From: a virus
Taxonomy: Duplodnaviria > Caudoviricetes
Virus record (IMG/VR): IMGVR_UViG_3300035201_000143
Span: 1 to 63,550 of that record
DNA length: 63,550 bases
Strand: one strand, 5' to 3'
Shown: positions 12,411-46,800 of the stretch, piece after piece
Numbering within the stretch: position 1 is the stretch's first letter
How the letters are laid out: every line of letters starts with the position of its first letter
Made by a program: the position numbers and the translations under genes
The notes under the pieces: model-generated
Databases searched by the model: none
Told to the model about the DNA's origin: nothing
What the model saw: the letters and a program-made list of their open reading frames with translations, nothing else

Positions 12411-12440
12411 AACTTTGGGGTTTATATTACAATCGTTAGT

Positions 12441-12448
12441 TATTTATA
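12441..12448 (-). promoter_or_regulatory. T4-type late promoter TATAAATA
   Basis: Exact motif ~30 nt upstream of the 12410 start. Confidence 0.75.
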
Positions 12449-19698: not shown

Positions 19699-19700
19699 AG

Positions 19701-20891: not shown

Positions 20892-20938
20892 AATATTTTA
20901 ATATAGAATGATATAGAAGATTTATTCAACTTCACTAC

Positions 20939-20946
20939 TATTTATA
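20939..20946 (-). promoter_or_regulatory. T4-type late promoter driving the enzyme operon
   Basis: Exact TATAAATA immediately after the terminator and ~48 nt before the glycosyltransferase start. Confidence 0.75.
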
Positions 20947-20951
20947 CGCAT

Positions 20952-20980
20952 AAAAAAGGACGGATATTACTCCGTCCTTT
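20952..20980 (-). terminator. Intrinsic terminator
   Basis: Stem AAGGACGGA / TCCGTCCTT with 6-nt loop and a T-run on the minus strand, just after the 21000 stop. Confidence 0.85.
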
Positions 20981-20999
20981 AATTATCTCGAACTTTGTT

Positions 21000-21827
21000 T
21001 TACCAACCATCAACTGATTTGATTGCTTCAGGAGCAGGAGTATCAGAAGACTTGGTTAATCCTGTTGCAGCATCGATCAATGAATCATAGTCATTAACAC
21101 GATAGTCATATCCATCGATCCAAGGAGTGCGAGGATCATCAGGGAATGGAATCATGTGTGGTCCCCAACCATCAGCAGCAGGGAATTTTGTATAAAGTTG
21201 ATTCAATTCTGCAATAAATGCTGTAAGAGCAGCTCTTTGCTGATCAGTAAGGTTACCCTGACCACCATTCTCAGTTGCTTCTGCATCTAAGTTTGCTTGT
21301 GCGTCTGCGACTAGACCGTCACGTGCAGCTTTGTGTTGCTCCATTGTGATCCAAGGCTTGAACCAAGGAAGAGGAGACTTCCATGCACCACCAGCAACGT
21401 CATATTCAATCTCGTCAGCAGCATAGGTATGATCAGGTGAGACTGGATCTGGACGCTCATAATATACAGTATCGTCACCAGTAATCTTGTACTCTTTCTG
21501 AGTGTAACCAGATGCCTTACCTGTATCTTTAGGGAAGTAGATAGCACCGATGACTGCTTCCTCATCCGTAGGAGAGTTCATGTCAATCTTAACGGCGACC
21601 TGATCTACACCAGCACGAGTATTAGCATGCTCGATGTCGTCAGCATTAGGTTCCCTATTGAACCCAATTGTTGATTGAGAGACTTGAAGTTTACCACTTG
21701 CTTTGTCTACAAAAACAAACAACCAACGTGGTCCCTCGTAAGTCCAACTTGCTGTCTTAGCGTCGTTGTCTGTCTGAGCCAAATAGTCATCAGGCAACTT
21801 GTATGTAAATGTTTTTGAAAAAGCCAT
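21000..21827 (-). CDS. Hypothetical protein, possible tail-fibre assembly chaperone
   Basis: C-terminal W...ARDGLV...LTDQQRAALTAFIAELNQL...FP..P resembles Tfa-type chaperone endings; follows the Cys-rich fibre-like genes; own promoter and terminator. Confidence 0.6.
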   Translation of the reverse strand: MAFSKTFTYKLPDDYLAQTDNDAKTASWTYEGPRWLFVFVDKASGKLQVSQSTIGFNREPNADDIEHANTRAGVDQVAVKIDMNSPTDEEAVIGAIYFPKDTGKASGYTQKEYKITGDDTVYYERPDPVSPDHTYAADEIEYDVAGGAWKSPLPWFKPWITMEQHKAARDGLVADAQANLDAEATENGGQGNLTDQQRAALTAFIAELNQLYTKFPAADGWGPHMIPFPDDPRTPWIDGYDYRVNDYDSLIDAATGLTKSSDTPAPEAIKSVDGW

Positions 21828-21850
21828 AACCTTTGATACCTATACCTTGT

Positions 21851-21858
21851 TATTTATA
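21851..21858 (-). promoter_or_regulatory. T4-type late promoter TATAAATA
   Basis: Exact motif in the intergenic gap upstream of 21827. Confidence 0.75.
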
Positions 21859-21879
21859 CAATTGAATTAGTTTTCTACT

Positions 21880-22776
21880 TTACGGATCAGCGACCTTGAA
21901 GTTAATGCGGATCATACCAGCGGTACCGTTCTGTCCATGACAGCATCCACCACCACAAGTCCAACCAGAAGGACCACCAACTCCAGGAACATAGTTATGT
22001 TCTGAGAAGGATCCACCCCAACCTAGTTGAGCAGTTGACCAGTGAAGTAAGCAATAACCACATCCACTGTTTTCGCACTGAACACCAGTCATCCATCCAC
22101 CCTTGCCGTTAACAAGACCAGCAGGATAAGGAATATGTTGCTTATTATAGCAATGCTCATTGTAGCAGAACATATAAGCAGCACCAGGAACTCCTTTAGC
22201 ACCACCATCGGCACCATAGAAGTCAGCACAGCATCCATAAGGACAACTAGAGAGACACATTGCTCTCCATGTGCAGCAACATAAGAAGCAGCAAGAACAT
22301 CCAGCACCACCACCTTTAGCACAGAAGTTACTTAAACCATAACCTGTGATATAGGATGGATTACCCATCTGACCACACTGACTACCTTGTCTACCACAAC
22401 CAGGAGTTCCAATATGAACATCATATACACAGTTTGCTATAGAAGCACCCTGAATACGTTTCCATGCGTATGCACCAGCACCACCAGGAATACCACGTGA
22501 ACAGCAACAAGAAGATCCACCGCCTCCACCAGCACCCCAGATCTCAAAGATAACATCACAAACATTATCAGGAACACACCACATTGGGTATCTATAGTAG
22601 TTATAACTTGTCGAGTGATCTTGACAAGTAGAACCACAATGAGGAGTGATATACTGCGTACAATAACCAGCAGCGGGTAACCGTGCTAGTTTTGTAGTAG
22701 CATCAGGATCAGATAATCCCATCAATGAATCTGACGTAACGAATCCTAATAGATCTCGTAAATTAGTATTTGGCAT
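21880..22776 (-). CDS. Cys/Gly-rich protein, paralog 3 (putative fibre tip/adhesin)
   Basis: WCVP..FEIWGAGGGGGSSCCC..GGAGAY glycine-rich domain; ~30 Cys in 298 aa. Confidence 0.8.
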   Translation of the reverse strand: MPNTNLRDLLGFVTSDSLMGLSDPDATTKLARLPAAGYCTQYITPHCGSTCQDHSTSYNYYRYPMWCVPDNVCDVIFEIWGAGGGGGSSCCCSRGIPGGAGAYAWKRIQGASIANCVYDVHIGTPGCGRQGSQCGQMGNPSYITGYGLSNFCAKGGGAGCSCCFLCCCTWRAMCLSSCPYGCCADFYGADGGAKGVPGAAYMFCYNEHCYNKQHIPYPAGLVNGKGGWMTGVQCENSGCGYCLLHWSTAQLGWGGSFSEHNYVPGVGGPSGWTCGGGCCHGQNGTAGMIRINFKVADP

Positions 22777-22799
22777 CTCTAGTTCCTAGTCCTCAGTAT

Positions 22800-23735
22800 T
22801 TAGTTAAAGTAGAACCACGCACAGTCGCTATTGCCTTCCTTGATCCAGCAAGAGCAATAGGTAAGTCTAATTAGACCACCGCCTCCACGCCATCCATAGC
22901 AGCATCCTCCACCACATGCAGTAGCAGATGGTGAACCAACTCCTGGAAGTCCTGGACCTCCATTACAGTTGATGTTATATGCCCAAGGAGTCGTTCCAGT
23001 ACAATACATGTATTCGTTAATACATGCATTACCATGATTATTTTGTGATAACCAACCACCTTTCTGGTTAATAAGACCAGCAGGATAAGGCATCATACCT
23101 TTAGCCCAGCAGTTATTTTGGTTACAAGTGTTCAAGAAGAATCCTGGTCTACCACCAATCATCTCATCTCCACCATAGGAGCATGATTGATCACAATGTA
23201 GATACCATCCTCCACATCCACCCCAAGAAACTTTGTCCTTACATCTGTAAGTTGAATCCCAGAAAGCCCAGCAGCATGTTTTGCCAGGAAGACCACCATT
23301 AGCACAAAGGTTACTTAAGTTACAACCTTGTACCCATGTCTTACATCCATTAATACCACAGCAACAACGAGAGCAACAAGTAGTTGATGCAACACATAGT
23401 TGGTAACACCAACCACCTTGTACTAGGGGATACTCTAATGTCTTACGGACATATGCACCAGCACCACCAGGCATACCCTGTTGACAGCAACAAGCACCAC
23501 CGCCTGAACCGCCTCCACCCCATAACTCGAAAGTTAATTGAGTAGTACCACAAGGAACACACCAGTACTGAATACAATAGTTTCTGTAACTACTGTCACA
23601 GTTACCTTGGTTACAGTAAGGGTGGAACACGAAGACCCTGCCTTCATGGTTCCTTTCAAGTGCAGTATTCTCAGAGACCGTTTGATCTATAGTACTTGCG
23701 AACTCCCTACCTAATAGTTCTCTTAAATTTGCCAT
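22800..23735 (-). CDS. Cys/Gly-rich protein, paralog 2
   Basis: WCVP..FELWGGGGSGGGACCC..GGAGAY; ~35 Cys in 311 aa. Confidence 0.8.
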   Translation of the reverse strand: MANLRELLGREFASTIDQTVSENTALERNHEGRVFVFHPYCNQGNCDSSYRNYCIQYWCVPCGTTQLTFELWGGGGSGGGACCCQQGMPGGAGAYVRKTLEYPLVQGGWCYQLCVASTTCCSRCCCGINGCKTWVQGCNLSNLCANGGLPGKTCCWAFWDSTYRCKDKVSWGGCGGWYLHCDQSCSYGGDEMIGGRPGFFLNTCNQNNCWAKGMMPYPAGLINQKGGWLSQNNHGNACINEYMYCTGTTPWAYNINCNGGPGLPGVGSPSATACGGGCCYGWRGGGGLIRLTYCSCWIKEGNSDCAWFYFN

Positions 23736-23750
23736 TAGTTTATCTCTCTA

Positions 23751-24677
23751 TCAGGATTTGCAGAATAATGTGACTCTGACGAGACCGTGAGCACCCTCAG
23801 AAGAACAGCAGCAACCGCCACCGAATACCTGAGCAGATACACCACCAGATCCAGGAGGACCATTTCTCCAGCAGTCTCCAGAGAGTCCACCGTTGTTTCC
23901 CGTCAACCATAATGTAGCTCGTCTACCACAAGATGCCATATCAGGCTTTCTCATAGAGTGATGAACACCATATCGAGCACCGTACATAGGTGCAGTTGGG
24001 TGATAATCTTTCTTCATACACCAGTTACCACAACCAGGGTTGCAATCATAATGAATGTATGGTGAAAGACCGTTCCAATACCATTTACCAGCATTTTCGC
24101 ATGATTGCATACAAGCATCATTATCTAATGTGTAATGGTCAGATTGCATCCTGCAACATGCAGGACCACATTGGTGTATCCTTGTCCTACAAGCGAAGTA
24201 TGAATCTACCCAGTGGCAACAGTTCCATCCGTGACAACCACCACAAGCACAGAAGTCGCTTAAACCTGGACCAGAAACATATGACTTACAACCGTCGTAA
24301 CCACCTCTGGAGGGGTGCCTACATGTACCACCAGCGACACATATATCGTAACAACAGTTATCTAACTGAGAAACGCCCTGAACAGCAGCACAGACAGTAC
24401 ATGATTGATACTGACCTGAGAAACCATTCCACGCAATAGAGCAGCAGCAAGTACCAGATCCACCGCCTCCTCCTCCCCAGAGTTCGAACTTGACCTTACA
24501 GATGCAGCAGTTAGGAACGCACCATCTTATACGTTGCCAGTCATAGTTGTAAGAACTACCATGTTCCCAACAGTGACTACCCCTGTAGTATAATTGATGT
24601 TGACCCCCACCCATATATGTTTGTATGGGTACTACATTAGCGTCAGGTACATCTAATAAATCTCGTAAACTTGACAT
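23751..24677 (-). CDS. Cys/Gly-rich protein, paralog 1
   Basis: WCVP..FELWGGGGGGSGTCCC; ~34 Cys in 308 aa; shared N-terminal LR.LL motif. Confidence 0.8.
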   Translation of the reverse strand: MSSLRDLLDVPDANVVPIQTYMGGGQHQLYYRGSHCWEHGSSYNYDWQRIRWCVPNCCICKVKFELWGGGGGGSGTCCCSIAWNGFSGQYQSCTVCAAVQGVSQLDNCCYDICVAGGTCRHPSRGGYDGCKSYVSGPGLSDFCACGGCHGWNCCHWVDSYFACRTRIHQCGPACCRMQSDHYTLDNDACMQSCENAGKWYWNGLSPYIHYDCNPGCGNWCMKKDYHPTAPMYGARYGVHHSMRKPDMASCGRRATLWLTGNNGGLSGDCWRNGPPGSGGVSAQVFGGGCCCSSEGAHGLVRVTLFCKS

Positions 24678-24697
24678 TTGACTACCTTAGTATTTCA

Positions 24698-25021
24698 TTA
24701 GTTGGATAGTATGGACCATCCGTATGCAGAACCCGTATAGATGAGCTCAAGAGAAGCATTTTTAATATCAAAATCAAGATCTTCTGCTAAATTAGCAATC
24801 TTGTGTCCATTACGAGCAATCGTTACTTTATTAGTATCACAATTACCAGCAGCATCAATCAAATTGATTCTGTCGCCAATTTTTCCGTTGGCAGGTAATG
24901 TGGCTGTAAAAGCTGATCCTGTTGTGTCAAGTAGCAGAATTTGTCCACTCAAAATAGAATGAGCAGAGGTAACTGCTACAGTTTCCCTTGTGTCAGATAC
25001 TGGTGTTAGGTTGCGTCCCAT
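24698..25021 (-). CDS. Small tail-fibre-associated beta-domain protein (107 aa)
   Basis: DTT...FT.TLP...GD.I..ID..G....N.VTI.RNG..I...LELIY....GW pattern seen in T4-like fibre domains; paralogous to the C-terminal domain of 29951..30412. Confidence 0.75.
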   Translation of the reverse strand: MGRNLTPVSDTRETVAVTSAHSILSGQILLLDTTGSAFTATLPANGKIGDRINLIDAAGNCDTNKVTIARNGHKIANLAEDLDFDIKNASLELIYTGSAYGWSILSN

Positions 25022-25045
25022 TGTTCTAAAATCTCCTTGTAATTA

Positions 25046-25053
25046 TATTTATT
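25046..25053 (-). promoter_or_regulatory. Late promoter variant AATAAATA
   Basis: NATAAATA in the intergenic gap upstream of 25021. Confidence 0.55.
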
Positions 25054-25063
25054 AATTAGTTAA

Positions 25064-25387
25064 TCAAGCGGTTGATTCTTCAACGCCATAAGCAGAGATA
25101 CTGACACCAGTCGTATCTGAGAAAGCAACAAGTTTCTTACCTGTTTGCATTGCAAAACCAGTTCTTTCAAGAACTCCGTATCCTCCAATCTCAGCATTGT
25201 ATTCAACATACTCAGCAGCAGTAGGTGTATCGGCAGCAGCAATTGCTACTCGTACATCAACGGCTGTTGCGTTGGTGTTGACAATGTTGAAGTTGCAATA
25301 TGCCACAGTACTTGCTGGTACTGTGTATATTGTTGTTAGTGTGTTAGCGGCTAGGGATTGTTGAGTCCCCAATACTCCAGAAGCCAT
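25064..25387 (-). CDS. Small virion structural/adaptor protein (107 aa)
   Basis: MASGVLG..IYTVP..VRVAI..YVEY..LERTG; Shine-Dalgarno GGAG upstream; same domain occurs twice in 11277..12410. Confidence 0.8.
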   Translation of the reverse strand: MASGVLGTQQSLAANTLTTIYTVPASTVAYCNFNIVNTNATAVDVRVAIAAADTPTAAEYVEYNAEIGGYGVLERTGFAMQTGKKLVAFSDTTGVSISAYGVEESTA

Positions 25388-25425
25388 TTTCTATTCTCCG
25401 AAATGCAGATGTAGTGGTTGTATGA

Positions 25426-25433
25426 TATTTATA
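25426..25433 (-). promoter_or_regulatory. T4-type late promoter TATAAATA
   Basis: Exact motif in the intergenic gap upstream of 25387. Confidence 0.75.
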
Positions 25434-25443
25434 TAGTGGGGGA

Positions 25444-28400
25444 TCAAACTGACCCTGCCCAGAAGACGTATCCTTTAGTTGTACGTGTACTATCAATGTA
25501 TGTCTTAACAGCACGTTGAGTAGGAACTTTTTGGTTTGAGTTAGCAGATAGAGTAACATCAGAAGAGAATTCTGTGATACTTTCTCCTAACTGAGCACCA
25601 ATAGAACCCAGTCTCAAGGATGATAGACCCGAAAGGTCAAAGGAGGAGGCATTCAATGTAGTTGAACCAGTTGCCTGATTGACCTTGAAGTAACGTCCAA
25701 CTGTGAAGTTACCATCTTGGTCTGTTGATACAAAGAATACACGTCCTGGGAAGTCTTCAGTAACTTCGTTGCCTGGTGCTGGATCCACTAATGGATCTCC
25801 AGGCCAGTTGGTGTTTAGTTTGTTTCCTGTACCTAAGTCTAGGAAGTCATGACCAGTTAAACGAACTTGACTGTAACCATATCTGATTTTGTAGTCCTGT
25901 CCATCAAAGGTTCTTGTAGGTTTCTCAGCAGCGAGAACAACTAGTGCAGTACCAGTCGTATCTGTCTGTGAGTTTGTCACCTGCATGAACTCAGTATCAA
26001 TCTTAATGTAGTCGTTGATATTGAAACCAGAAGCGTCAGTGATACGAACATCAGATTGAGAGTTTGTTATATCTCTCAAAGTATCTGTTTGATCGACAAC
26101 TTTGATTTCAAGAGCACGAACTGAAAGACCAGAGGTATGAGCAGCAGCGTTTGTACCTTCAACTCCACGAGTAACATCCATAGATGTTGCTGTTGGGAAG
26201 GAGGTGATTGCCATCATCTCATCTTCAATGATCAAATATGCTCCAATTGAGAATCCACTAATTGTATTAACGTAGATTGTTGTCTCAGTTGTGTTGTTAA
26301 CAGCAGAACTCAAGTTAGTTGCACCACCATACTGATATCTGGTAATTAATTCCAGACCATCATGTGCAGCAGCAGCACTACCTAGTAGTCCTCTAGTAAC
26401 AGTCAAGTTACCTCTTCCAGCAGGAGCTGTATAAGAAGAGTTAGCAATAACAAATGTGAATGGTTCTTCACCAAGTCCACCAGCACCAGTAACGAATTCA
26501 ACCGAACCGCCTGGAACAGGTGCAGATCCTCTACCAGTCAAGGCAAGAACGAATCCGTTCTGACCACCAACAGCATCAGCGTTACTAAGTAGCGGACCTT
26601 GTACTCCAGAAGTTTGACCATCAATAGTCTCACCTTGTACAAACGTTCCTTTGAAAGGTCTGTAAAGAATCTTAGATACACCAGCCTGTACAGAGATGAT
26701 TTCTCCAACAGCACCAGATGTCAATCCGATAACTCTCTCTCCTGTCAACCAGATTGAATCTGTTGCACCAGGAACGACCGCCGCCTCATCATATTGAAGA
26801 GATAATCCATCAATCTTACCATCAAGAGTTGTCTCATTAGTATCATATCCAGAAGATACAATACCGTATGTACCCCAAGAAGAGTTACCTGCGAGAGATC
26901 TGATTCTTCCACCTCTGGTAGAAACGTAAGAAAGATGACAGTAGTAAGTGAAGCAAGATACAATCTCAGCACCTGCCTTGTTTGTACACCAGAAACCAAC
27001 TCCACCATCTTCGTGGATTTGTGTCCAAGAGTCAAACACCATTGTTTTGTTTGATCTGTTATCAAACGTAACGGCGTTAGAAGCAGCACTCACAAATGTA
27101 TGAGCATACTGGTCAGCAGGAGGAGCAACACCAACATTAACTGTAATTGTTGTTGCAGAAGCAGCAAGAATTAGAAGTTCCTTACCAAAGGCAGGGTCAC
27201 TAACACGAGGATAAGCATGGTTAGATGCACCACCGTTCTTAGTACAATTGAATGTAATAGAAGCCTGTGCTAATGTAATACTTGATCCAGTAGTCAATCC
27301 ATGACCTGAACCAAGAGTAAGTTCCATGTCACCAGTAGCAGGATTATAAGATCCTCCAGATGGTGTAAACTGTGCTGTAGTATCCCACTTAGCGTGAACA
27401 TCACCATCAATAATAGCACCAACTCCAGTTGCACCGAAGCAAGAACAGTTTGATACGTAAGGTGATCTCTTAATTGGTGAGTTAGGATCTAGACGTACAT
27501 AAACACCACCAATTGTAGCAGTGTTAAGATCTTTAGGATCAGAAGCAGAAGGAACGAATCCAACCATTCCATCCATAACCATGTCCTTAAGCATAGTGGT
27601 GCTTCCTAGCATCCACATAGTTAAATGCTCGTTCATGACTGGAGTAACACTACTGATAGCGATATCTGTAGCACCTGCCTCATATGTGTCTGTAGTTGTC
27701 CAAAGGTTTTGGTTAGCATCTCTAGTGATACTTCCTAATCCAGAAGTTAAACCAGTTGTTGCAACTCCAACCAATGTTGTAATAGCAGCATCCTGTACAA
27801 GACAAGTTACGTTAGCACTAATGCTGTTAATATCAGTAATACTATTATTGATAACCTGTGTCAAACCATGAGTACCAACAACAGTAATAGACTCGTTATT
27901 GATAACATCTTTTGCAAGAGGAATCAAGTAAGCCAAGATAGAAACAACTTCTGCCTCGTTACCGTTCCAATAGTTATTAGTAATCCAATCATTAAGTGTG
28001 TCATAAACACGATCATTACCACCATAACCTAAGTTAGCAGTGATATCCTGAATAAGAATAGCAAGTTTGCTTTCAAATACAGAAGCATCTCCACCAGGAG
28101 GGTTAGTAATAGTAACACCACCAGCAGCAGCCTTAGCAAGAGTTTCTTTAACTAAGAACTGTGTGTTAGATGTTAATAGGTTATATGCGTCAGCAGTTTT
28201 GTTGTTAGCAAATCCATCGGTCTGAACATAAATGTCAGAACCACCTTCTCTAACGTCAATAACTTCACCAGTCTTTGCTCCATCACCAGATGTGATAGTA
28301 GCACCAAGAACTCTATACTGAGCATCAGGTACTTGTGCAAGTGTAAGTTTAACAACACTTGAAGGTTCACCAGCTCTTGCTTGAATCCTTGAGGTTCTTA

Positions 28401-29549: not shown

Positions 29550-29954
29550 TTACTTAGGTCCCTCGGTTGTATAATCGTAAGTTTCATTGAAACGGACCAC
29601 GAAATATCCGTTATCATCTACAAAGTAGGTTACTTTTCTACTGTCAAATCTGTACTGTTGGTATTGATCTTGTGGATGATTAGTATATGATTTAGATTCT
29701 GTAGTTTCTTCTACATAATCTGTCATTCCTGTTGCAATATCTAGGTATGGAGTACCATCTTTACGATGGAAAGTTACTACATCATCATCAATACTTCTGA
29801 TTTTGGTATAATAGAGCATACCATCATCATCTCTGCGTAAGGCATGGATAGTAAAATCGTTACCAAGATCGTAGTTGTTACTAGCAAACCCTGTTGAGCC
29901 ACCTCCAGTACTGGAACCGCCTCCTCTAAAACTATCGCTGATGTACATCGTCAT
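29550..29954 (-). CDS. Hypothetical (probable structural) protein
   Basis: ATG at 29954 forms an ATGA overlap with the upstream stop (preferred over the track's TTG at 29987); YQQYRFD..YFVDDNGYFV. Confidence 0.75.
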   Translation of the reverse strand: MTMYISDSFRGGGSSTGGGSTGFASNNYDLGNDFTIHALRRDDDGMLYYTKIRSIDDDVVTFHRKDGTPYLDIATGMTDYVEETTESKSYTNHPQDQYQQYRFDSRKVTYFVDDNGYFVVRFNETYDYTTEGPK

Positions 29955-30412
29955 GTGACAATTACCCTCCAGTAAACTCCTTCCCAAATAAGTTGAACAC
30001 CTGCGCCTTTAACGTCAAAAACCAGAGGAGATGAAATTACTCCATATGTATTTTGAAATTGTCGTCCGATAGGGTCCGTCAGAGTAACATTATTTATATC
30101 CCAACTAAACTTTACATCAATGAACTCAATTACATCCCCAGACTTGGGAACCAATTGGTTATTGTAAAGAGGAAGTGTTAACGATATAGGACCATTAGAT
30201 GAGTCCACCAAATAACGAAGGCTTGTTCCTAGAGTTTGATTTGAATTTATATATTCCCATCTTGCCCTGAATACATCAAATCCACCAGTGGTGGTTCCGT
30301 CATGAATGACGGCCATATTCTTATCAGTATCAATCGTTAGTTCACCCTGAGCTCCAGTAAAAAGAGCGTGTTCAGATGTAGTACCCCTACGAAATTGAAC
30401 CTGAGTTGTCAT
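29951..30412 (-). CDS. Structural protein with Mtd-N/hyaluronidase-like N-terminal anchor domain
   Basis: MTTQVQFRRGTT.EH..FTGA.GELTIDTDK...IHDG.T.GG is the major-tropism-determinant N-terminal motif; C-terminal beta domain resembles 24698..25021. Confidence 0.8.
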   Translation of the reverse strand: MTTQVQFRRGTTSEHALFTGAQGELTIDTDKNMAVIHDGTTTGGFDVFRARWEYINSNQTLGTSLRYLVDSSNGPISLTLPLYNNQLVPKSGDVIEFIDVKFSWDINNVTLTDPIGRQFQNTYGVISSPLVFDVKGAGVQLIWEGVYWRVIVT

Positions 30413-30435: not shown

Positions 30436-30454
30436 TATTTATGTGATATTTATA
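30436..30454 (-). promoter_or_regulatory. Tandem late promoters (TATAAATA 30447-30454; CATAAATA 30436-30443)
   Basis: Two NATAAATA boxes 11 nt apart upstream of 30412. Confidence 0.65.
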
Positions 30455-33400
30455 TTAGATGATCCAACCATATGATCTTGGTGGTGCGACTTGTATACGT
30501 CTTGTCTCGGCATCACCAACATGTAGAATAACTCCACCTTCAGATACAAATCTCTGATAAGGTGCAATAACCTTAGTTGTGATATCAATCTCAATTGGGC
30601 AGTGTCCATCGTAGCTGAAGGTACGGAGGACTTCTGCACTTGCCAGTGAAGGTATACGACCTGAACCAACAAATGCCTTGACAATAACAGGAACATTGTC
30701 CTCTTCGAAGACATCGATTCTTCCTGAACCATCTGCTGTGGTTGTAATACTGGAAGTAGATTCTCCAAAGAATTGTGCGGAACCTTCTCCAACATATCCC
30801 TTCCTTGTGAAGGATTCTGCACCTGATCCTCTGACCTCGACAGCGACATCTGTAACAATATTTCTTGCAACAGCCTGTCTTGCAACACCCAAGAAGTCGA
30901 AGATTGCGACATTCTCGACTGCAATTGTTCTGGATTCGGATGCATTGTTCCATGTGAAGAACGATCCAGTTCCAACTGTAACTCTTGTTCTTGGAGTATC
31001 GGCAACACCAAATACATTGACAACTCCATAAAGTTCTGGAGAGAATGTAATTGTCTCTGCTGCACCAGCGAATCCCCAAAGACGGCCAATTCCACTGTAT
31101 GCTTCTGTATGTTTCTCGTCTGCAATACCAGAAACACCAAGATCAATTTGAGAATTCCAGTGGAATGTACGACGCTCAATGCTGCTAACAAAGTTGAATA
31201 GATTTCCGAATCCAACTTCTGCGTATGTTGTTGCTTCCTCTGCACGACCCTTGAATGTAAAGAGTCCTGTTGCTTCTGGTACGACTCCAACACTTTCCGA
31301 AGCACCAGAGAACGCAAAGAGTGTACCAAATAGAACTTCTCTTGTAGTAACTCTCTCTGTCTTTGTACCACCAAAGGAGAATAGAGCAGTAGTCTCGTCT
31401 GGATTGACAGTGAAACTCTCTGAAGCACCACTGATATTGAAGATCCTTCCTTCTCCAACAAAGTCTCTTGTACGAGATACGGATGTTGTAACATCGACGT
31501 AGATAGTACCAGAACCAATATTGTTTGGTGTGAATCTCTCGAATGCTTCTCCAGTAATATCGAGTGGTACTGGTACTTCGTCTGGACTGAATGCAACAGT
31601 TTCTGATGTCCTTGTGCCACCAATAGAGAATAGTAACTGTCTCTCTTCTGGATTGAAGGTAACACTTTCGGATGCACCACTGATATTGAAGATGCGTCCT
31701 TCTCCAATAAAGTCTCTCGTACGAGAGAATGTGGACGTAACATCGATTGTTGCACCACCAGAACCAATCCAGTTTGGAATGTACTTGATACGTGCTGTAC
31801 CAGACAGTTTGGATTCGATTGTGAATCTTTCGCTGAAGGTTCTGATGAATCCACCAAATCCTTTGAACACCATGTCTGCCTGGAATTCTGGCAAGACAAA
31901 TGTGATACTCTCTGCTGCACCACTGATAGCAAATATACGACCTTCGCCAACCCATACATGGGATCTGGAAGATGTAGAAGCACCAAAGATATCGACTTCG
32001 ATTCTTGGTTGCTCTGCAAATGTAAGGATTGGTTCTGAAACTTCTCCACTGAAGAGAATTTCTGCTTGACCAATCTCTCTGTATGCAGCACGAATATCTG
32101 CTTTCTCTGGACTGAATGCAATATCTGCTTGGAATGCAGGTAACTTGAGGGTGATAGCCTCGTCTGCTGCTCCAATAGAGAACAGTCCACCAACACCAAA
32201 GTGGATATCGACGTTGACAACAACCGCATCTCCACTGAGATATATGTCTCCAAGTGGTTGTTCTGCGAATGTAAGTAGTGGATCTGCAATCTCTCCAGAG
32301 ACTGTAAATACACCAGATCCAATAATACCACCAAAGGTGAAGCTCTGGGTGACAGCACCCTTGAGAACTGCGTCTGCTGTAAACTCTGGAAGTTTGAGAG
32401 TAAGAGATTCTGCTGCACCACCAACAGAGAACACCTGACCATCGCCATGATAGGCATGTGTTCTGAGAATATCTGCTTGACCGTATACTTCTGTACGACC
32501 AAATGGTTGCTCTGCAAATGTAAGTATTTCTGGACTTGATGTTCCACGTACTTCTGTGTGAACCAGACCAGCAATAGCGATTGCACGACTCTCGTCGAGA
32601 CGACCTGTAAAGTCGAATAGTGCTCCAAGTTCGAGTGGGTTGAATGTAAACGCCTCGACTGCACCACTGAAGTTGAAGATCCGACCTTCGCCAGTCCAAT
32701 GTTTCGTGATAAGTGGTACAACAGAAACGTTGAATATCTCTGTGCGAGATTGACCAACCCAGTCTTCTGTATGTTTCTCCAGTGCAGTACCAGAGAGATC
32801 GATATCGACTGTAACCTGTTCGGAAGCAGTAAACCTCTGACTTGCGAGTCCACCAAATGTGAGATCTGCTTGGAACGCAGGGATGTCGATTGTAATCGCT
32901 TCTGCACTGCGACCAATGGAATATAGATTTCCAAATCCATGGAAGTGGAGACTGAAGTTCTCTCCTGCGTTTCCAGAAACATCGATAACAACGTATCTGT
33001 AGTTGTCTGATACAACTGCCTCTTGACAGCGACCAGATACTTCCATGTGAGCAGAACCTTCTTCTGCTGTGATGAACTTGAGATCTGTGTAACCACCAGC
33101 AAACTTGAATAATGGTGGTGTTGTTGGAGGAATAACAACAGTACATTCTGCTGCACCACTCCAAGCCCAAAGTGTAGGATCGTTGGTAACCCACTGAGGT
33201 GGTACACGAACTTCTGAATTGGAACGAATCTTGATCGCATGTTCCCAAGGAATCGGATCCGATATAAAGATCTTGGTCTGCGAATCGTGTGTAAGAGAAG
33301 TAAAGCTGACAAGTTTTCCAAATGGGTATTCGGAAACCTTTGTGCGAATAGGACTGAATACAGATGTGAATCCGTAGTCCTCTCTTACCGTTGCACCAGG

Positions 33401-35908
33401 ATCTGTGATGAATCCACAATCGTGGATCGTTGTTGCTCCAGCAGAGAGCCAAGGATCGATACCATATGTCTGGCCAAGAGGTACTGTTGCAACAACACCA
33501 TTGAGACCAATTCTGATGATAGAAGTTGGTGAAGTACCAGAGAGATTCTGACTTGGTGTAATGGTGGTAACAGTACCAACACCAGGTAGACTTGCATAAT
33601 CTCTGTACTCGTATAGATTCTCGGAAGAATCGTTGTAAGAGTAAGTTCTGGACTTCTCTGTACTGATGATAGTAGGTAGTACACCAGTACCTTCATAAGC
33701 AAAGGATCTAAGTACAGGTTCTGCTGTTCCATGAGATGCCCATAGAGTACCAAAGGCATTCCAATTAGGTGCGAATCTAACGTCAGCAACACCTCTAATT
33801 GGGAATAGAGCCTGTTTCTCATCTGGGTTGAAGGATACAGATTCAACTGCACCACCAATCTTGTAGATCTGACCTTCACCAACGTAGTCAAATACACGTG
33901 AAGCTTCAGCGTATACAATACTGAAGGCACGACCTTCACCGATGTATGGTCTAGTAACACTGTAAGTTGCAGAACCAGATGCCTTAAGTACAATGAATCC
34001 ATTCCATTGTGGGTTAATACGTACCCATGTGGAGGAACGAATCTTGACTGCTGCATCGAATGTCTTCTCTGCAATAAACCTGACACTGCGTGAGGTATGT
34101 GTATGACTGGTATACTGGAATCCACCAAAAGGATACTGCCATACTGTCTGAGAAATATATCCCCAATCAATATTTCCAGAGTAACCTTCAGCAATACTAC
34201 CGTAATCGAAGGCAGAACCTGCTGTATAGTTAGATACAAGAGATACAGTGTAGTCTGGGTCTACAACACCAACAACACCAACATTGATTCTTACAACCGA
34301 TCCTGTAGATGTTCCTGAGAGGATCGTATTTGTAGTGATCTCCTCAATGGTAGCAGTACCTGGCAACGGACCGAAGTCTGTATAACCAAATGGTACAATA
34401 GAACTATCGTTGTAATCCCAAGTAACTCTCTCAGCGTATGCATCTCCAGTGAAGACTGGGATGACACCAAATGGTTGCTCACCATATGTTCTCTTAACGT
34501 CAGAGACTGCACCTGTGACAGGTATAGTACCAGAACCTCTCCAGTTAGGTACGAAGTTGACCTTAACGTTAGACTGAAGTGGAGCAAGAGCACCAGTAGC
34601 AAGGTAATCTGTAGTGACTCTCTCTTCACCACCACCAATTTTGTATAGATTACCAGTACCCTCATAGGAGAATACAAATGCCTCGTCTGCTCTGGAGAAG
34701 TTGAACAGTACACCTGATCCAATTTCACTAGCAGTAATTCTCTCTGCGAGAACACCACGAACCATACTCCTGACGAATCCATTCCATCTAGGTTTGGTTC
34801 TTCCTCTACCTTTACCAAATACCTTAATGTCACCACGACCAATCCAGTTAGGTACGTAGTTCTGTTTAGCAGTACCCTTAAGTTGACCGAGACCGAATGG
34901 ATATAAGGTACCAGTGATACTAAGAAGACCCCAATCAGTATTGGTTGTCTTACCAATAGATATTGGAGCGTGTTCAATCGAGTTTGTAAACGTACCCGAA
35001 TGAGGTGCAATCTGATATCCACTAGGATCTACAGTTGCAGTTATTGTAGGATTAATTTGTACTACAGAACCTGTACTTATACCTGTAAGTACTTGGTTTG
35101 TAGAGATGACTTGATAGGACTGTACTGGAATAGTACCATAGTCCTCATAATCGAATGGAACAACAGAGGAGTTATTATATGAGTATGCTCTTCTGTTATC
35201 TTCGCTGTTAATATTAGGTAGAGTACCAGTACCCTCAAATCCAAATGTGCGCTTAACTTGCTGGACTTCTCCAGAAACCTTGGCTGTACCGTATCCAACC
35301 CAGTTAGGTCTGAAGGAAACCCCTGCGCTACTCTTGAATCTGAATAATCCCTTGGACTCAATAGAAATACTTCTAGTAACTGCACCAGAACCAATCTGAT
35401 ACAGATGTCCTTCACCAGATTCTTTCTTGGAGAAAGCTTCCGTTGTGAGGGACTGGATCCCAAATAGTCCAAAGACTTCGATATCTGGAACCCAGTGTGT
35501 AACCGCACTACCTGTGACTCGTACCGTACCCTGAACGATCCAAGGAGCAGACAGACGATAGTAAGTACCGACCATCTCGAAGACAGTACCACTACCAACC
35601 CATGCATGTAGAACTGTCCACGTTGTAGCAGTCTTCGGTCTAACAAAACCGTAAGGTCGGACAGTATCTGTGTAAATTATTCTACCCCAATCATCAACCG
35701 TAACAGCTTCTACGTCGTTGATGGATCCACCGTCTATGACAGTGGTGGGTGTTAATGCTAGTGAATTTAAACCGTAGTCGAGTTGTATAAACTCATCAAC
35801 ACATGAAGGATTCCATGAATATGAAAGTCTCTCGCCACTAAAAATACGCAACGCAAAACTAGACCCATAAGGTCCGTCTATACTAGTTGTATAGATGTGC
35901 GTTGCCAT
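30455..35908 (-). CDS. Large repeat-containing virion structural protein (1817 aa)
   Basis: Shine-Dalgarno GGAGGG upstream; natural composition; recurring W.G.G / GEGRIF.ISGA.E..TFNP and LTFAEQP repeats plus YSYN.SS and DYG.I motifs. Confidence 0.85.
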   Translation of the reverse strand: MATHIYTTSIDGPYGSSFALRIFSGERLSYSWNPSCVDEFIQLDYGLNSLALTPTTVIDGGSINDVEAVTVDDWGRIIYTDTVRPYGFVRPKTATTWTVLHAWVGSGTVFEMVGTYYRLSAPWIVQGTVRVTGSAVTHWVPDIEVFGLFGIQSLTTEAFSKKESGEGHLYQIGSGAVTRSISIESKGLFRFKSSAGVSFRPNWVGYGTAKVSGEVQQVKRTFGFEGTGTLPNINSEDNRRAYSYNNSSVVPFDYEDYGTIPVQSYQVISTNQVLTGISTGSVVQINPTITATVDPSGYQIAPHSGTFTNSIEHAPISIGKTTNTDWGLLSITGTLYPFGLGQLKGTAKQNYVPNWIGRGDIKVFGKGRGRTKPRWNGFVRSMVRGVLAERITASEIGSGVLFNFSRADEAFVFSYEGTGNLYKIGGGEERVTTDYLATGALAPLQSNVKVNFVPNWRGSGTIPVTGAVSDVKRTYGEQPFGVIPVFTGDAYAERVTWDYNDSSIVPFGYTDFGPLPGTATIEEITTNTILSGTSTGSVVRINVGVVGVVDPDYTVSLVSNYTAGSAFDYGSIAEGYSGNIDWGYISQTVWQYPFGGFQYTSHTHTSRSVRFIAEKTFDAAVKIRSSTWVRINPQWNGFIVLKASGSATYSVTRPYIGEGRAFSIVYAEASRVFDYVGEGQIYKIGGAVESVSFNPDEKQALFPIRGVADVRFAPNWNAFGTLWASHGTAEPVLRSFAYEGTGVLPTIISTEKSRTYSYNDSSENLYEYRDYASLPGVGTVTTITPSQNLSGTSPTSIIRIGLNGVVATVPLGQTYGIDPWLSAGATTIHDCGFITDPGATVREDYGFTSVFSPIRTKVSEYPFGKLVSFTSLTHDSQTKIFISDPIPWEHAIKIRSNSEVRVPPQWVTNDPTLWAWSGAAECTVVIPPTTPPLFKFAGGYTDLKFITAEEGSAHMEVSGRCQEAVVSDNYRYVVIDVSGNAGENFSLHFHGFGNLYSIGRSAEAITIDIPAFQADLTFGGLASQRFTASEQVTVDIDLSGTALEKHTEDWVGQSRTEIFNVSVVPLITKHWTGEGRIFNFSGAVEAFTFNPLELGALFDFTGRLDESRAIAIAGLVHTEVRGTSSPEILTFAEQPFGRTEVYGQADILRTHAYHGDGQVFSVGGAAESLTLKLPEFTADAVLKGAVTQSFTFGGIIGSGVFTVSGEIADPLLTFAEQPLGDIYLSGDAVVVNVDIHFGVGGLFSIGAADEAITLKLPAFQADIAFSPEKADIRAAYREIGQAEILFSGEVSEPILTFAEQPRIEVDIFGASTSSRSHVWVGEGRIFAISGAAESITFVLPEFQADMVFKGFGGFIRTFSERFTIESKLSGTARIKYIPNWIGSGGATIDVTSTFSRTRDFIGEGRIFNISGASESVTFNPEERQLLFSIGGTRTSETVAFSPDEVPVPLDITGEAFERFTPNNIGSGTIYVDVTTSVSRTRDFVGEGRIFNISGASESFTVNPDETTALFSFGGTKTERVTTREVLFGTLFAFSGASESVGVVPEATGLFTFKGRAEEATTYAEVGFGNLFNFVSSIERRTFHWNSQIDLGVSGIADEKHTEAYSGIGRLWGFAGAAETITFSPELYGVVNVFGVADTPRTRVTVGTGSFFTWNNASESRTIAVENVAIFDFLGVARQAVARNIVTDVAVEVRGSGAESFTRKGYVGEGSAQFFGESTSSITTTADGSGRIDVFEEDNVPVIVKAFVGSGRIPSLASAEVLRTFSYDGHCPIEIDITTKVIAPYQRFVSEGGVILHVGDAETRRIQVAPPRSYGWII
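31380..32720 (-). repeat. ~80-83-aa (~243-249 nt) degenerate tandem repeats in the 1817-aa gene
   Basis: DNA-level match of 31431-31540 to 31680-31790 (SRTRDF.GEGRIFNISGASES); LTFAEQP recurs near 32010, 32260 and 32505. Confidence 0.8.
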
Positions 35909-35925
35909 TTACCCTCCACTAAAAT

Positions 35926-35954
35926 AAAAAAGGGGATCCAGTAATGAATCCCCT
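35926..35954 (-). terminator. Intrinsic terminator
   Basis: Minus strand AGGGGATTCA-TTAC-TGGATCCCCT followed by TTTTT, downstream of the 35985 stop. Confidence 0.8.
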
Positions 35955-35984
35955 CACACATAATAATGAATTCAATTGAATTAA

Positions 35985-37373
35985 TCAGTCTAGGCTGACG
36001 TTCAGAGTTACTTTGATCTGGTCACCAGCGTTTTGAATAGCGTAAGGACCATTTGTGAACCTTTCAGCGAAGAATATCGCATCATAGAGTGTCACAGAAC
36101 CTGTACCATCAAGTGCTTTAGTAGTCGTGAAGGTGTTTGCATCAGGTGTCTCGAATACAATGTAAGTACCAGCAGTAGTTGTGGTATTACCTGTTCCCTG
36201 ATCGATATAAACTGCATCGCCTGGTTCTAGACCATGACCTGTAGCAGTTACTTTACTGAAGTCAAACTTAACAACGTCATTACCGTTAGAAGTTTGAATG
36301 TTCTCAATAAGAACGTTATTGAGGAATACAGTTACTGTTCCGTCTGTATCATCTGTCTCGTAATCGATACCAGTGATAACTGTAGCAGCATCGATACCAT
36401 TAGGTGTAGTTGTCTGAGAAACTCTCATTCCAAGAGCAAGATCCTCAGCAACGTTTGCTTGGAATACAGCATTACCACTAACTGCACCAGCGTTTGCCTT
36501 AGTTAGATAAACTGTAGTACCAACGATTCCAGTAACACGTGCTCCCTGAGCAACGTTAGTTCCTGTAACACGCTGACCAACAACAACTCCAGTTGTGGAT
36601 GTAACAACAATTTCAAATTCACCAGCAGTACCAGTAGCAGCAGTAGTAGCAGCAACAGCAGCAAGAGTAATATAGTTGTTTCCAATAGTACCACGAACAC
36701 CAGACTTAGAAATCTGTGTGCCAGTAGCAGCAGTACCAGCATCACCTACACCATGAATGGTTGTAGGCATGTTGTTAGCACGTGAGAGGAAATAACCGTA
36801 TACGTTACCAGCAGGACCATCAAATGTGAATGTTTGCTCTGGATAAGAAGCAGTTGTACGACCTCTACCAAAACTCAATGGTTGTGCAGTGAAGTTACCA
36901 GTGTTCTTAACACTTAAGTTAAGTGTAGTACCATCAATGTCAACAACATATGCACCAGTGCCGACAGATCCACCAGTAACATAGTCACCCTTTTTAATAC
37001 CTGTGTTAGAAGCAACCGTAACTAGGTATGTTCCAGATGTACCATCACCATTAGTTGTTGTGACAGCTGTTGGTTCAGTTTCGATTCCCCAACGGTTTCC
37101 GTTCAGCAAGATACCATACTGCTGTGCATAATCCTGATCAGTCCTATTATTGATGATGCCAGGATAACCTGTTGTAGGTGCGCCACCATAACCGTTTGTG
37201 TTGTTATCGGTGTATGGTTCGAAATATCGTGTTTGAGAGGGAGTATCACTCTCAGCAGGATATGTATCTGTAGTGAACAACTTAAGAATAAGGTTCCTAG
37301 GGATATTCTGCGAATAGTTAAGCAGATTCCTTAGAGAATCAATTTCGCCGTTGTCGGTGACTAAGAGTGCCAT
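35985..37373 (-). CDS. Virion structural protein (462 aa)
   Basis: NLILKLF..D..P.ESDT, ASYPEQTFTF.G.AGNVYGY and AERFTNGPY.IQN.GDQIKVT; T/G/A-rich; flanked by late promoters and a terminator, which suggests high expression. Confidence 0.8.
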   Translation of the reverse strand: MALLVTDNGEIDSLRNLLNYSQNIPRNLILKLFTTDTYPAESDTPSQTRYFEPYTDNNTNGYGGAPTTGYPGIINNRTDQDYAQQYGILLNGNRWGIETEPTAVTTTNGDGTSGTYLVTVASNTGIKKGDYVTGGSVGTGAYVVDIDGTTLNLSVKNTGNFTAQPLSFGRGRTTASYPEQTFTFDGPAGNVYGYFLSRANNMPTTIHGVGDAGTAATGTQISKSGVRGTIGNNYITLAAVAATTAATGTAGEFEIVVTSTTGVVVGQRVTGTNVAQGARVTGIVGTTVYLTKANAGAVSGNAVFQANVAEDLALGMRVSQTTTPNGIDAATVITGIDYETDDTDGTVTVFLNNVLIENIQTSNGNDVVKFDFSKVTATGHGLEPGDAVYIDQGTGNTTTTAGTYIVFETPDANTFTTTKALDGTGSVTLYDAIFFAERFTNGPYAIQNAGDQIKVTLNVSLD

Positions 37374-43871: not shown

Positions 43872-46800
43872 TCAATAAGATGCCACTGCCCTCATATCTT
43901 GAATCTTAGGAACGAATGCAGGGTTATTAGATCTCATAACAATCTTAACTGCATAAGATGAGAATTCTGGTAAATTCTCTATGCTATAAGATAGTTCTTG
44001 ATATGAAGATTGTTTTTCTGTAATACCACTAATGGCATTTTCAGAAGAAGCAATAGTATCTACATCAGGTTCACCTGCTTCATTAAAGTAAATCCATTCA
44101 ATGTCTTCAAAGTTCTCCTGTGAAGAAGACTTCTTAATCTTATAAAGAATCATAAGATTCTTAATATCAGTAACGTTAGCAGTAAGTTTTACATCAATAG
44201 ATGTAGCAGGATTTTCAATAGCAATCTCTTTAGTCACATATTTAGAAATTCCAGAACTATTCTTAGATTGGGTTTCTGTAATGAAGTCAACACCATCTGC
44301 ATAAGATACTGTTGCAACTTCGATGAAACTTACTTCATCAACTGGTTGATTAGGATATGATACTAGATCACCAACTCTAAAGATATCAGATAACTGATCA
44401 TCTACACTAGCGTTTCTATCAAAACTACTACTATCAATAAGTCTTCCTGTATAATCATTATTAATTGGTTGCTTGTCATTAACAGTAGTCAACTCACCAG
44501 ACTTACTATTCCACAAGATTATCTTTCCAGAAATTTTATTATCATAAGTATCTGCTGGTACTGATGGATTCCTAGCAGTTACATATGTTGGAGGTGTAGT
44601 GGTATTTGGTATATCAAACCAGAATTTAACAAGACCATCTGTACCAACAGTGATTGCACCAGCAAATGTTTGTCCACTAAAGGTTATTGTTTCACCAGCA
44701 GTGAAAGTATTAACTGTAGTAACCTTAACAAATACAGTACTACCATCAACCTTGACAATAGTTCCTTCTGCTTTAGAAGTAGTACCAACAAGAGTTTGTG
44801 AACTATTAATTACTTCAGCACCTTGTAGACCAGATGCAGTAAATGAAAATACTGGTAGGAAAGTTACAATTTGATTCCTTCTACCGTACCTATCTTCTGT
44901 TCCAGATGCATTCTCAATACGATTAGTAATAGTCTTAACAGATGCTCTATCCAAATCAATAACTGGAGAAAGATGTGTAACAGTACTTGATAAATCAAGT
45001 TTATAAACTAATGAATTATCGATACTATTAACGGTTTCATTAATCTTAGAAGCAACAATCTTCTGATTAATAAAATAGAAATCCTCATTTAAGAAAGTCT
45101 TTTCATAATCAGTCTGTGAATATGAAACGAAAGTACCTAAATTGTCATCTATTGGTGCAATGTTTGTAGTCTTAACAAAACTATCAATTTTAGTTTGACT
45201 GAATGTTAGATTAGATATAGAAGCAAATACCTTCTCAAACTTCCTATTGTATGTCGCTAGTACATTTGTACCACCACCAAAGGAATTACCAGACGCTCTA
45301 GTAGATCCAGTGATGTTATAATAATCAACACCAGTATTAGAAACCTTATAAAGATTGCTGTTTATTGATGAGGCAGTTACACCACCAACATCAACTGCAT
45401 TCTTGAAGTAAACCCATGACTTATTAAGATCAAAACCATTGTCTCTATGATTAACCTTAACAACATAATTGTTATTCTTGAATAGTGTTGATGTAGCAGT
45501 AGTATTTGCTTCTGCATTAGTCTCAATTGGTTGTGCATCCAATGCTTCAAATCCTAAGTCATCGTTAGACAACATCAAACTTGCAGTTCTACTAATATCA
45601 AATTCTGCACGATTCAATACAAACTTAACATCTTCAAATAGATCTTCAGTCCAATCACCTGTGTTCTGTGATCTGAATAAAGAACCTAAAGCAGGTTGTG
45701 TTGTGACAATTTGACTAGTGGCAACTTCAACTCCACCCAACTTAGAAGACCACAATTCATAATCAACTGAATCTGTCTCAATAGCAAGAGCATACTCAGT
45801 ATCATTCTCAAGATATACAGGGAAATCAAATCCAAACTTAGTAGGAGTTATAGATTCTGTTTCTCCTGTCTCATCAATAGCAATACCCATTCTAACTGCT
45901 GGAGTATCAATAGTAATTTCAGATTCAATCTGAGCACCAGCATTACCAGAACCTGTTCCTCTAAGAACAATAGATGGTGGTTCAGTATAACCAGAACCAG
46001 CAAGTGTCATTTCTGCATCATATACAAGACCTTGAGAAACTCTAACCGTAGCAGTAGCGTTACCACCACCAGGAAGTTGTGGACTTTCAATAGTAATAAT
46101 TGCAGAATCGTATCCACTACCTGTATTAGCAACATTCAACCCAGTTACACGACCAGAATCCTTAGTGATGTTTAATGTGAATTGTGTATTGTTTGCATTA
46201 TTAGCTTGTGTAATAGATGTAACATTTAATAGTTCATCTTGTACAAAATTCTTACCATTGTTGTTATCTAAAACAACAGTATACACTTGATCATTTGTAA
46301 GTGTGAATAGACCTGTAGTACTAGCAACAACTTCAATATTATTCTTATCAATCAGTTTACTAATAGGACCAGAAGCATTGGACTTAGATCCAGTTACCTT
46401 CTCTCCTTTTGTTATCGTAAGTGTATCACTTGCGACTACTTTTAAGAATGTCTCTGGAGTTAATACCTTCTGAGTACCAGGAACAATATTCTTACCTGGT
46501 TTTCCACTAGTAGTATCTGTTAGATAAACTCGTAATGGGATATTATCACTCTTCTTATTAAAGAATAGATCTATACTTGTTACAAATACACCACCCTCAA
46601 ATCCATCAACTTTAAATGTTTGAGCAAATGGGTTTGGTCTTATAGGATTCTCTGTATTACTACCAACAATTTGTGTACCTTCATTTGCTTTAAAGAATGC
46701 AGGTCTTGTGGAAATAATAGAAGATGGATTCTCTGGTACTACACCAGTAGCATAGAATTTCACTTCAGCAAATGTTTCTACTTCATCCTTACTAGCATCA

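Follow-up and report, generated by a model that had tools for sequence, protein, structure and literature searches.

The window analysed here is the whole 63,550-nucleotide stretch of the virus record IMGVR_UViG_3300035201_000143 (Duplodnaviria; Caudoviricetes), and its subject is one tail-region gene on the minus strand, at 30455..35908, which encodes a protein of 1817 amino acids (aa). The protein matched the phrog_11522 profile (E 1e-265); it had no match in Pfam or the PDB and no convincing match in the Atlas. It is built of Gly/β-strand repeats, arranged as ~82-aa units in the C-terminal half and ~250-aa modules in the N-terminal half, its N-terminus and its C-terminus (..WII) are both conserved, and the gene has a GC content of 44%. 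Stop triplets have been purged from the other two sense frames of this gene (+1 and −1), and the purge is real, selected and gene-specific. The blocks that make up the gene are given below, the fractions being off-frame stop opportunities that are realised.

35677..35908, minus strand: the N-terminal 77 codons, with ordinary off-frame density (7/13 and 8/16 realised).
35077..35676, minus strand: +1 open block of 199 codons, coinciding with the first module.
34291..35028, minus strand: 245 codons open in +1, corresponding to one N-terminal module, over which −1 has normal stops.
33385..34260, minus strand: 291 codons open in +1, ended by a single TAA at 33385-33387.
30439..33384, minus strand: 981 codons open in +1 that run on to 16 nt beyond the main stop; a Leu/Ser/Gln/Val-rich shadow sequence without amino-acid constraint.
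31185..33692, minus strand: −1 open block of 835 codons; an Arg/Ser/Trp/Tyr/Cys-rich shadow sequence with a net charge of +103.
31188..33384, minus strand: the core, codons 842-1573, free of stops in all three frames (0/85 realised in +1, 0/142 in −1).
31143..31187, minus strand: three clustered −1 stops, the exit of the long −1 block.
30591..31142, minus strand: second −1 open block, of 183 codons.
30513..30593, minus strand: five −1 stops clustered at the end of the gene, within its last 46 codons.

Minus-strand stop triplets in this region occur at 30591, 31143, 31176, 31185, 33385 and 33693. A first-pass annotation, made from the sequence alone, had drawn attention to the pattern and suggested a codon-shuffled null, which was run here with 1000 synonymous shuffles. 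Over the 731 codons of the core, 0 stops were observed in +1 and 0 in −1, against shuffled values of 17.8±2.6 and 59.0±5.0 and minima of 9 and 46, respectively. The off-frame stops of 12 other tested genes in the window lay near their shuffle nulls. The next longest gaps shared by all frames measure 552 and 308 nt, both within the main gene, followed by one of 153 nt, and the longest stop-free gap on the plus strand is 134 nt. Opposite 31188-33384 the plus strand carries 45-62 stops per kb, i.e. a normal density, and elsewhere in the window the minus strand carries ~40-85 per kb. Our stop scan agrees exactly with the first-pass claim that 31188-33384 is free of stops in every sense frame; the recount of 30594-33692 gave the same four triplets (31143, 31176, 31185 and 33385), and the line chosen for comparison, 43921-43980 (called VrlC), does hold four stops.

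The depletion had been attributed to synonymous codon choice, and the third positions support this. T at the third position is at 0 before AA, AG or GA and normal in other contexts (GGT 0.79, GTT 0.71); since it is absent only before these dinucleotides, codon choice is targeted. TGG, TAC and TAT are enriched in the core, which, together with the density on the plus strand, bears out the earlier statement that these codons remain common and that the opposite strand is normal. An assembly artefact, raised at the same time, is ruled out because two DNA runs (not flagged as possible source) hold the whole stretch in one contig each, with 8 and 25 substitutions and 0 indels.

The two extra frames were then compared along the gene. 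The +1 frame is open from codon 78, save for clusters of stops at codons 277-293 and 539-549 and a lone stop at 841; −1 stops occur at normal density until codon 738, after which that frame is open save for codons 1574-1588 and the last 46 codons. Over codons 78-738 the +1 frame is purged (6/75 realised) and the −1 frame is normal (63/122). The coordinates agree with the earlier description of a +1 frame mostly open upstream that ends 16 nt past the main stop. The independent switching of +1 and −1 blocks contradicts two further proposals of the first-pass annotation, a ‘frame-agnostic’ segment and evasion of a factor that targets stop triplets. The frame specificity implies reading by ribosomes. 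Avoidance of an RNA or DNA motif regardless of frame (the target of a nuclease, a methylase or a defence system), or a legacy of repeat homogenisation, would account for the loss of all three stop triplets from the core in every frame; we give it almost no credence, as one frame is purged and the other normal over 660 codons, which refutes it, and as the enrichment of TGG, TAC and TAT and the normal plus strand also speak against it. Repeat homogenisation was ruled out as the cause of the purge, the repeats being merely 41-62% identical in DNA.

Close relatives and diverged family members alike keep the purge, as found in the homologue comparison that the first-pass annotation had advised. Each of the nine full-length close relatives (84-99% identical) has an all-frame gap of 2200-2206 nt. 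The homologue in S-CAM1 (29% identical) has gaps of 1684 and 1473 nt and that in S-CAM3 (26%) has gaps of 1303 and 1203 nt; the purge is also present in S-SSM7 and Sf-FS3. Among 24 de-duplicated representatives, +1 realisation in the C-terminal half is ≤9% in 24/24 and an all-frame gap of >400 nt occurs in 21/24, while the first tenth of the gene realises 35% of opportunities (20 representatives). In its C-terminal half the S-SSM7 gene realises 1/106, and the S-SCSM2R orthologue is partly purged (+1 realised 5/73). The family comprises 206 representatives at E<=0.001 in a profile search; looking for loci with P0031 gave no match, and the most distant subfamilies were compared as protein sequences only. 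Within the S-CAM1 genome the purged gene is the extreme of 68 tested open reading frames (ORFs), with 71 stops vs 207 expected (z −14); for the independent gene that ranks next the figures are 384 vs 453. Two giant structural genes of S-CAM1 (L091:8712-16832 and 18786-27884) show milder −1 deficits of 267 vs 333 (z −6.3) and 330 vs 359 (z −4.1 overall).

Selection against off-frame stops is ongoing. In the nine close relatives, risky dicodon states form a stop in 0/408 cases in the core vs 163/418 in the N-terminal part, and in the S-CAM1 group in 4/742 vs 286/1007. Cost estimates are ~0.14 population-scaled units per codon for −1 openness and ~0.05-0.09 for +1. The +1 frame is purged in more places than the −1 frame, presumably because its cost per codon is lower.

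We investigated whether the gene tolerates shifts of frame. No non-triplet gap was found in the nine close relatives or in four DNA runs, and 93/95 loci stay in frame, with out-of-frame stretches in the other 2/95; the indel tolerance and out-of-frame repeat recombination entertained in the first-pass annotation thus find no support. It has been proposed for the PE_PGRS genes, in the accessible part of PMC13328622, that open frames favour diversification, and here too they might let indel pairs or out-of-frame recombination move shadow sequence into the protein. The two exceptional loci point that way, as do 24 of the 150 database representatives of the family that are frame mosaics (P0022, P0064, P0065, P0077, P0111 and P0140 among them). 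However, all eight mosaics looked up are singletons, in one contig each, and many have 3-5 frame switches, as sequencing indels would give; they look like sequencing errors. These entries read through across frames because open frames conceal indel errors from gene callers, and they stand as a warning for annotation. Furthermore, no intact homologue has a shadow-type segment in frame 0, and the spacings of the main repeat families are multiples of three. Diversification by frame is, on these grounds, highly improbable. RNA runs (contigs only, mostly of 85-95% relatives with small shares) gave no RNA-specific joint within the gene; the single joint inside the gene in RNA run X19 is also present in DNA run X13.

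Third-position synonymous rates (transitions/transversions, per thousand) are 63/26 in the core vs 73/27 upstream in the window group, and 126-134/74 vs 144/86 in the S-CAM1 group, core rates being just 4-14% below those of the N-terminal part. Transversions silent in +1 or −1 were not commoner than non-silent ones, in a test of modest power, and frame 0 is better conserved than the extra frames. Their translations match nothing in Pfam or PHROG, and a conserved functional domain of the lambda G/GT type was not found in the shifted frames. The −1 frame of the S-CAM1 core holds 0 ATG, GTG or TTG, and the −1 block 784-1013 of L116 overlies a stretch without Trp or Cys, in which no start codon is possible; +1 frames are rich in these triplets (22, 45 and 67). 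Since several −1 blocks lack start codons, entry there is by frameshift and not by canonical initiation. It is openness that is selected, not a second folded protein, which is how the first-pass annotation had read the pattern. It had also listed true overlapping genes, whose +1 and −1 ORFs would encode sequence-selected proteins. Such genes would fit ORFs of 981 and 835 codons that stay open in diverged phages, but the nearly unsuppressed synonymous rates, the absence of protein matches and of an excess of silent changes, the startless −1 blocks and boundaries that differ between lineages leave them with very little probability.

We propose, with a confidence a little short of even, that selection acts on the fate of accidentally frameshifted ribosomes, which would be carried to a few exits and not released as clean truncations. 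The proposal is built on sequence comparison. Ribosomes would enter the other frames by low-level slippage at many places. The protein would be the subunit of a long, two-ended virion fibre or ruler, and shortened chains would be dominant-negative, being built into the fibre and spoiling its assembly. A slip followed by a prompt stop would release a clean N-terminal fragment that survives and is incorporated, whereas a slip onto a stop-free frame would add a long junk tail and the chain would be destroyed; on a broken or stalled message without a stop, the slipped ribosome would be dealt with by transfer-messenger RNA (tmRNA) tagging and destruction. The cost of a new stop would rise with the length of the open stretch upstream, so that the open and the ordinary state would both be stable. 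By our estimate, error-level slippage could provide enough selection in large marine populations. Toy simulations of cumulative cost, in which equilibrium was not reached, gave a long sharp patch in 1/36 runs of one set.

Of the two kinds of frameshifting that the first-pass annotation had considered, stochastic slippage gives the best reading, while for the programmed kind no slippery X_XXY_YYZ heptamer was conserved or shared at block starts. T precedes TTY in 1/61 cases in the window core and 1/69 in the S-CAM1 core, vs 84/352 in seven other genes of the window. Slippery sites are purged, and slippage is therefore unwanted. T before TTT or TTC is also avoided in ordinary window genes, where TTTY 4-mers reach about one third to one half of the shuffle expectation in long genes.

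The edges of the −1 blocks support distributed entry. Among relatives, the 5′ edge of the long −1 block varies (codons 733-762, with two lapses to 859 in L021) and its 3′ edge always falls at 1573-1577. The last −1 block of a second subfamily has a constant end, just past an LTFAEQP motif, and a start that wanders (standard deviation 5 vs 83 alignment columns; 24/25 sequences, L116 having lost the block). The zone just upstream is partly purged in the short-block lineages, with 29/101 realised vs about half further up. A fixed 3′ edge, a wandering 5′ edge, a partly purged upstream zone and tolerance of single lapses are all consistent with slippage at many sites. In S-SCSM2R ORF111 the −1 stops number 49/89 in a globular insert vs 51/180 in the repeats (p 3e-5), and because the insert keeps ordinary −1 density the purge follows the repeats. 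The stop hazard drops with distance from the previous stop, from 0.54 to 0.03; this fits damage control but is not counted, because any two-state mixture yields the same.

The composition of the protein was examined for a related signature. Internal Met makes up 0.13% of residues over 80 long family proteins, and 29/80 have none in 1,200-3,100 residues. The scarcity of internal Met hints that fragments of the other, N-terminally truncated kind are avoided too. Long members of the family retain a similar first strand, and most have the ..II ending; with both termini conserved and Met scarce, fragments look unwelcome.

Several observations weigh against an origin in the fate of slipped ribosomes. 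Single exit stops are kept between long open blocks, at codon 841 in all full-length close relatives and at S-CAM1 codon 1620 in 9/9 of its group, and these count against the proposal because it makes such stops the costliest. The sister lineage L142 lacks the TAA at codon 841 (33385-33387). At module junctions a +1 stop is maintained via different codons. Pooling the 5′ edges of −1 blocks reveals no clear fade (0.42-0.49), and stops are denser in the first 15 codons past −1 exits (0.61-0.66 vs a baseline of 0.45-0.50); these denser stops and the conserved exits suggest chosen ends. Exits showed no degron, rare Arg before the stop or tandem-Arg stall signal when lineages were counted independently. 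Other long fibre genes in the same phages, possibly truncation-sensitive too, are unpurged. The depletion of Met is weaker in one purged subfamily (5-16 Met per gene), and the ordinary −1 density of the S-SCSM2R insert is also explicable by recent insertion.

Signals at the exits themselves were examined. Rare Arg before stops is reportedly the subject of Hayes et al. 2002. Rare Arg first seemed enriched before exit stops (10/69 vs 13/528 in +1, 10/63 vs 145/3623 in −1), also with 20 representatives. With nine independent representatives the enrichment was lost (2/24 vs 0.96 expected, 2/22 vs 1.03), and the signal was rejected as kinship because it had gone in this set. Tandem Arg near exits is not enriched (7/725 vs 140/7421), the C-termini of the blocks share no common motif, and inspection by eye showed no re-pairing of the codon before the exit stop that would return the ribosome to frame 0.

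Chosen ends are what programmed frameshifting at several non-canonical sites would give, yielding isoforms with a correct N-terminal part followed by a long +1 or −1 tail that is useful for its length or bulk chemistry (Leu/Gln/Ser-rich or polycationic) and not for its sequence. We regard this as unlikely, though it deserves serious attention. The blocks are sharp, and in other lineages mid-gene −1 blocks have ordinary density on both flanks; block lengths often approximate one module (200-300 codons); different codons serve as conserved single exits at the same module position across lineages; and stop density rises just after the exits. Around both S-CAM1 exit stops (L013, codons 1052-1066 and 1611-1625) synonymous variation is low, with obs/exp of 0.32-0.33, placing them among the ten lowest windows and marking possible RNA signals. 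An Rfam scan returned two weak matches only, neither within the core. Against programmed sites stand the missing slippery heptamer and the lack of any common site at block starts, the stronger purging of slippery 4-mers here than elsewhere, 5′ edges that vary by >200 codons, and the tolerance of lapses and loss of whole blocks, L116, L038 and L174 having lost theirs; L065 is likewise without any −1 block, as are L038 and L174.

The scarcity of Met could also reflect avoidance of re-initiation. Off-frame termination would be followed by a nearby restart in the main frame, giving chains that lack their N-terminal part and retain the C-terminal docking motif, and exits would persist only where a restart is harmless. 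TTG is rarer in the main gene than in most long neighbour genes, the start-like triplets of the +1 frame could load ribosomes, and +1 stops are located at module junctions, all in line with this account. However, the main frame has hardly any start codons on which to restart, the −1 frame is purged equally fully despite its few starts, and one purged subfamily has no scarcity of Met, so we consider re-initiation quite unlikely. A slightly poorer prospect is that translating the extra frames matters in itself, in that ribosome cover would shield the long message or prevent collisions. Openness without protein constraint has a counterpart in the ambigrammatic narnaviruses, going by the available text of PMC8316113 and PMC8155312, but main-frame ribosomes already cover the same strand, and longer, more abundant late genes (gp23 and the gene for a 3693-aa fibre) are unpurged.

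The region downstream bears on the same question. The features flanking the gene are as follows.

35985..37373, minus strand: upstream partner gene, 462 aa, phrog_10467, with ordinary off-frame stops; the S-SCSM2R homologue of this gene bears the label ‘tail fiber rope protein’.
30447..30454, minus strand: TATAAATA, directly 3′ of the main stop; it closes the −1 frame.
29951..30412, minus strand: downstream gene of 153 aa, assigned to the phrog_9648 tail protein and carrying an Mtd_N domain (PF18454).

We take TATAAATA to match the T4 late-promoter consensus, and at 30447..30454 it likely supplies the downstream gene with its own promoter. No copy lies inside the main gene. We considered and rejected a coupling between the +1 frame and the downstream gene, as TATAAATA precedes that gene and several homologues have a +1 frame that terminates ahead of the main stop; for the same reasons ribosome cover gains nothing here, the next gene having a promoter-like site of its own and no need of coupling. 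Between the 462-aa gene and the main gene, a weak Rfam match to L20_leader (35918-36019, E 0.015, below the cut-off) covers a hairpin and T-run that is probably a terminator-like hairpin. A further side observation is an NAD-dependent epimerase at 12415-13272, the single plus-strand gene among minus-strand structural and sugar-modification genes.

The same phrog_10467 and Mtd_N flanks accompany the gene in S-CAM1, S-CAM3, Sf-FS3 and S-SSM7; with the profile match, this synteny places the main gene in the phrog_11522 family of cyanomyovirus repeat proteins. In S-SCSM2R the syntenic orthologue is ORF111, which follows the gene for the ‘tail fiber rope protein’ and is labelled TolB; ORF111 (L178:16131-20240) has an inserted globular domain at about residues 360-730, probably the source of that label. 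ORF111 was found in the virion proteome, and in the part of the paper available its authors did not class it as structural (PMC12801897). AlphaFold2 gave no usable model of the main protein, with a mean predicted local distance difference test score of 26.5 (25 sequences) or 30.3 (54 sequences).

We also searched for tmRNA genes. Ribosomes left without a stop through decay or frameshifting are rescued by tmRNA, according to the portion of PMC6207430 at hand, and two-piece tmRNAs of marine phages are already known (PMC9004378, likewise in part). A two-piece tmRNA is present in six genomes that bear the family: S-CAM1, S-CAM3, S-SSM7, Sf-FS3, G001 and G003. No tmRNA match was found in the window or in two half-complete records, and S-CRM01 and S-CBWM1 have tmRNA-like matches with the family gene undetected. 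Two points count against our proposal about slipped ribosomes: the complete S-SCSM2R genome, with its partly purged orthologue, gave no tmRNA match with two models, and the link between tmRNA and family is common yet not strict, and is confounded by kinship. As side observations, unannotated two-piece tmRNA genes lie inside tRNA clusters (L093:8643-8957 in S-CAM1, and L180-L184) with tags such as ANTSDSAANNIVAFSRSTVAA, the tag of S-SSM7 being longer and ending ..ELVTA; in S-CAM1, L093:4238-4331 and 6239-6335 hold PhotoRC-II and wcaG RNA motifs above Rfam cut-offs.

Put more broadly, we would give an even chance to a three-frame stop-free runway with exits that serves either as proofreading against poison subunits (at a fixed module boundary or through tmRNA, often the phage's own) or to make length-defined isoforms free of sequence requirements. 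The purge may provide a purpose for the tmRNAs of these cyanophages, and could be used to recognise by sequence those proteins that become poisonous when truncated. It occurs in cultured phages (S-CAM1, S-CAM3, S-SSM7 and S-SCSM2R), and the cost of frameshift errors and of early vs late termination is therefore directly testable by synonymous recoding.

The first-pass annotation knew of no described mechanism for this in cyanophage structural genes, and our literature search, to which most subscription papers were external, returned no description of three open frames or off-frame stop depletion of this pattern. Known systems offer partial likenesses. The tmRNA-SmpB pathway makes shifting onto a stop-free stretch a known route to tagging and destruction (PMC6207430, accessible text), and most carriers of the gene encode a two-piece tmRNA; however, no report was found of a gene recoded to route its own errors there, and one carrier has no detectable tmRNA. 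Lambda gpG/gpGT likewise has a long second frame reachable solely by a shift, in the tail-assembly region (PMC5009743, in the part available), but here there is no conserved slippery site or second-frame protein, both frames and many blocks are involved, and slippery runs are avoided.

In ambigrammatic narnaviruses an extra frame is kept stop-free on a kilobase scale without its protein sequence being the selected target, as the available portions of PMC8316113 and PMC8155312 describe. Theirs lies on the reverse strand, whereas the present case concerns the two other sense frames of one mRNA of a double-stranded DNA phage, in separate and often startless blocks; a stop-free reverse-complement frame is lacking, the opposite strand having normal stops. 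The PE_PGRS genes of Mycobacterium tuberculosis are also repeat-protein genes reported to be poor in out-of-frame stops (PMC13328622, in the text available). Their pattern is tied partly to GC enrichment and mutational plasticity, in contrast to a gene of 44% GC that was compared with a codon-matched null and in which no indels were seen. The closest conceptual relative is the ambush hypothesis, in which synonymous choice is again shaped by the fate of frameshifted ribosomes. Its literature, in the portions accessible, describes off-frame stops as either neutral or in excess, and selection as favouring shorter products after a frameshift (PMC5909447, PMC2996987, 10.1101/2025.10.02.679949). The main gene strips off-frame stops almost entirely, which reverses that sign in a natural gene, and the effect far exceeds the debated genome-wide trends.

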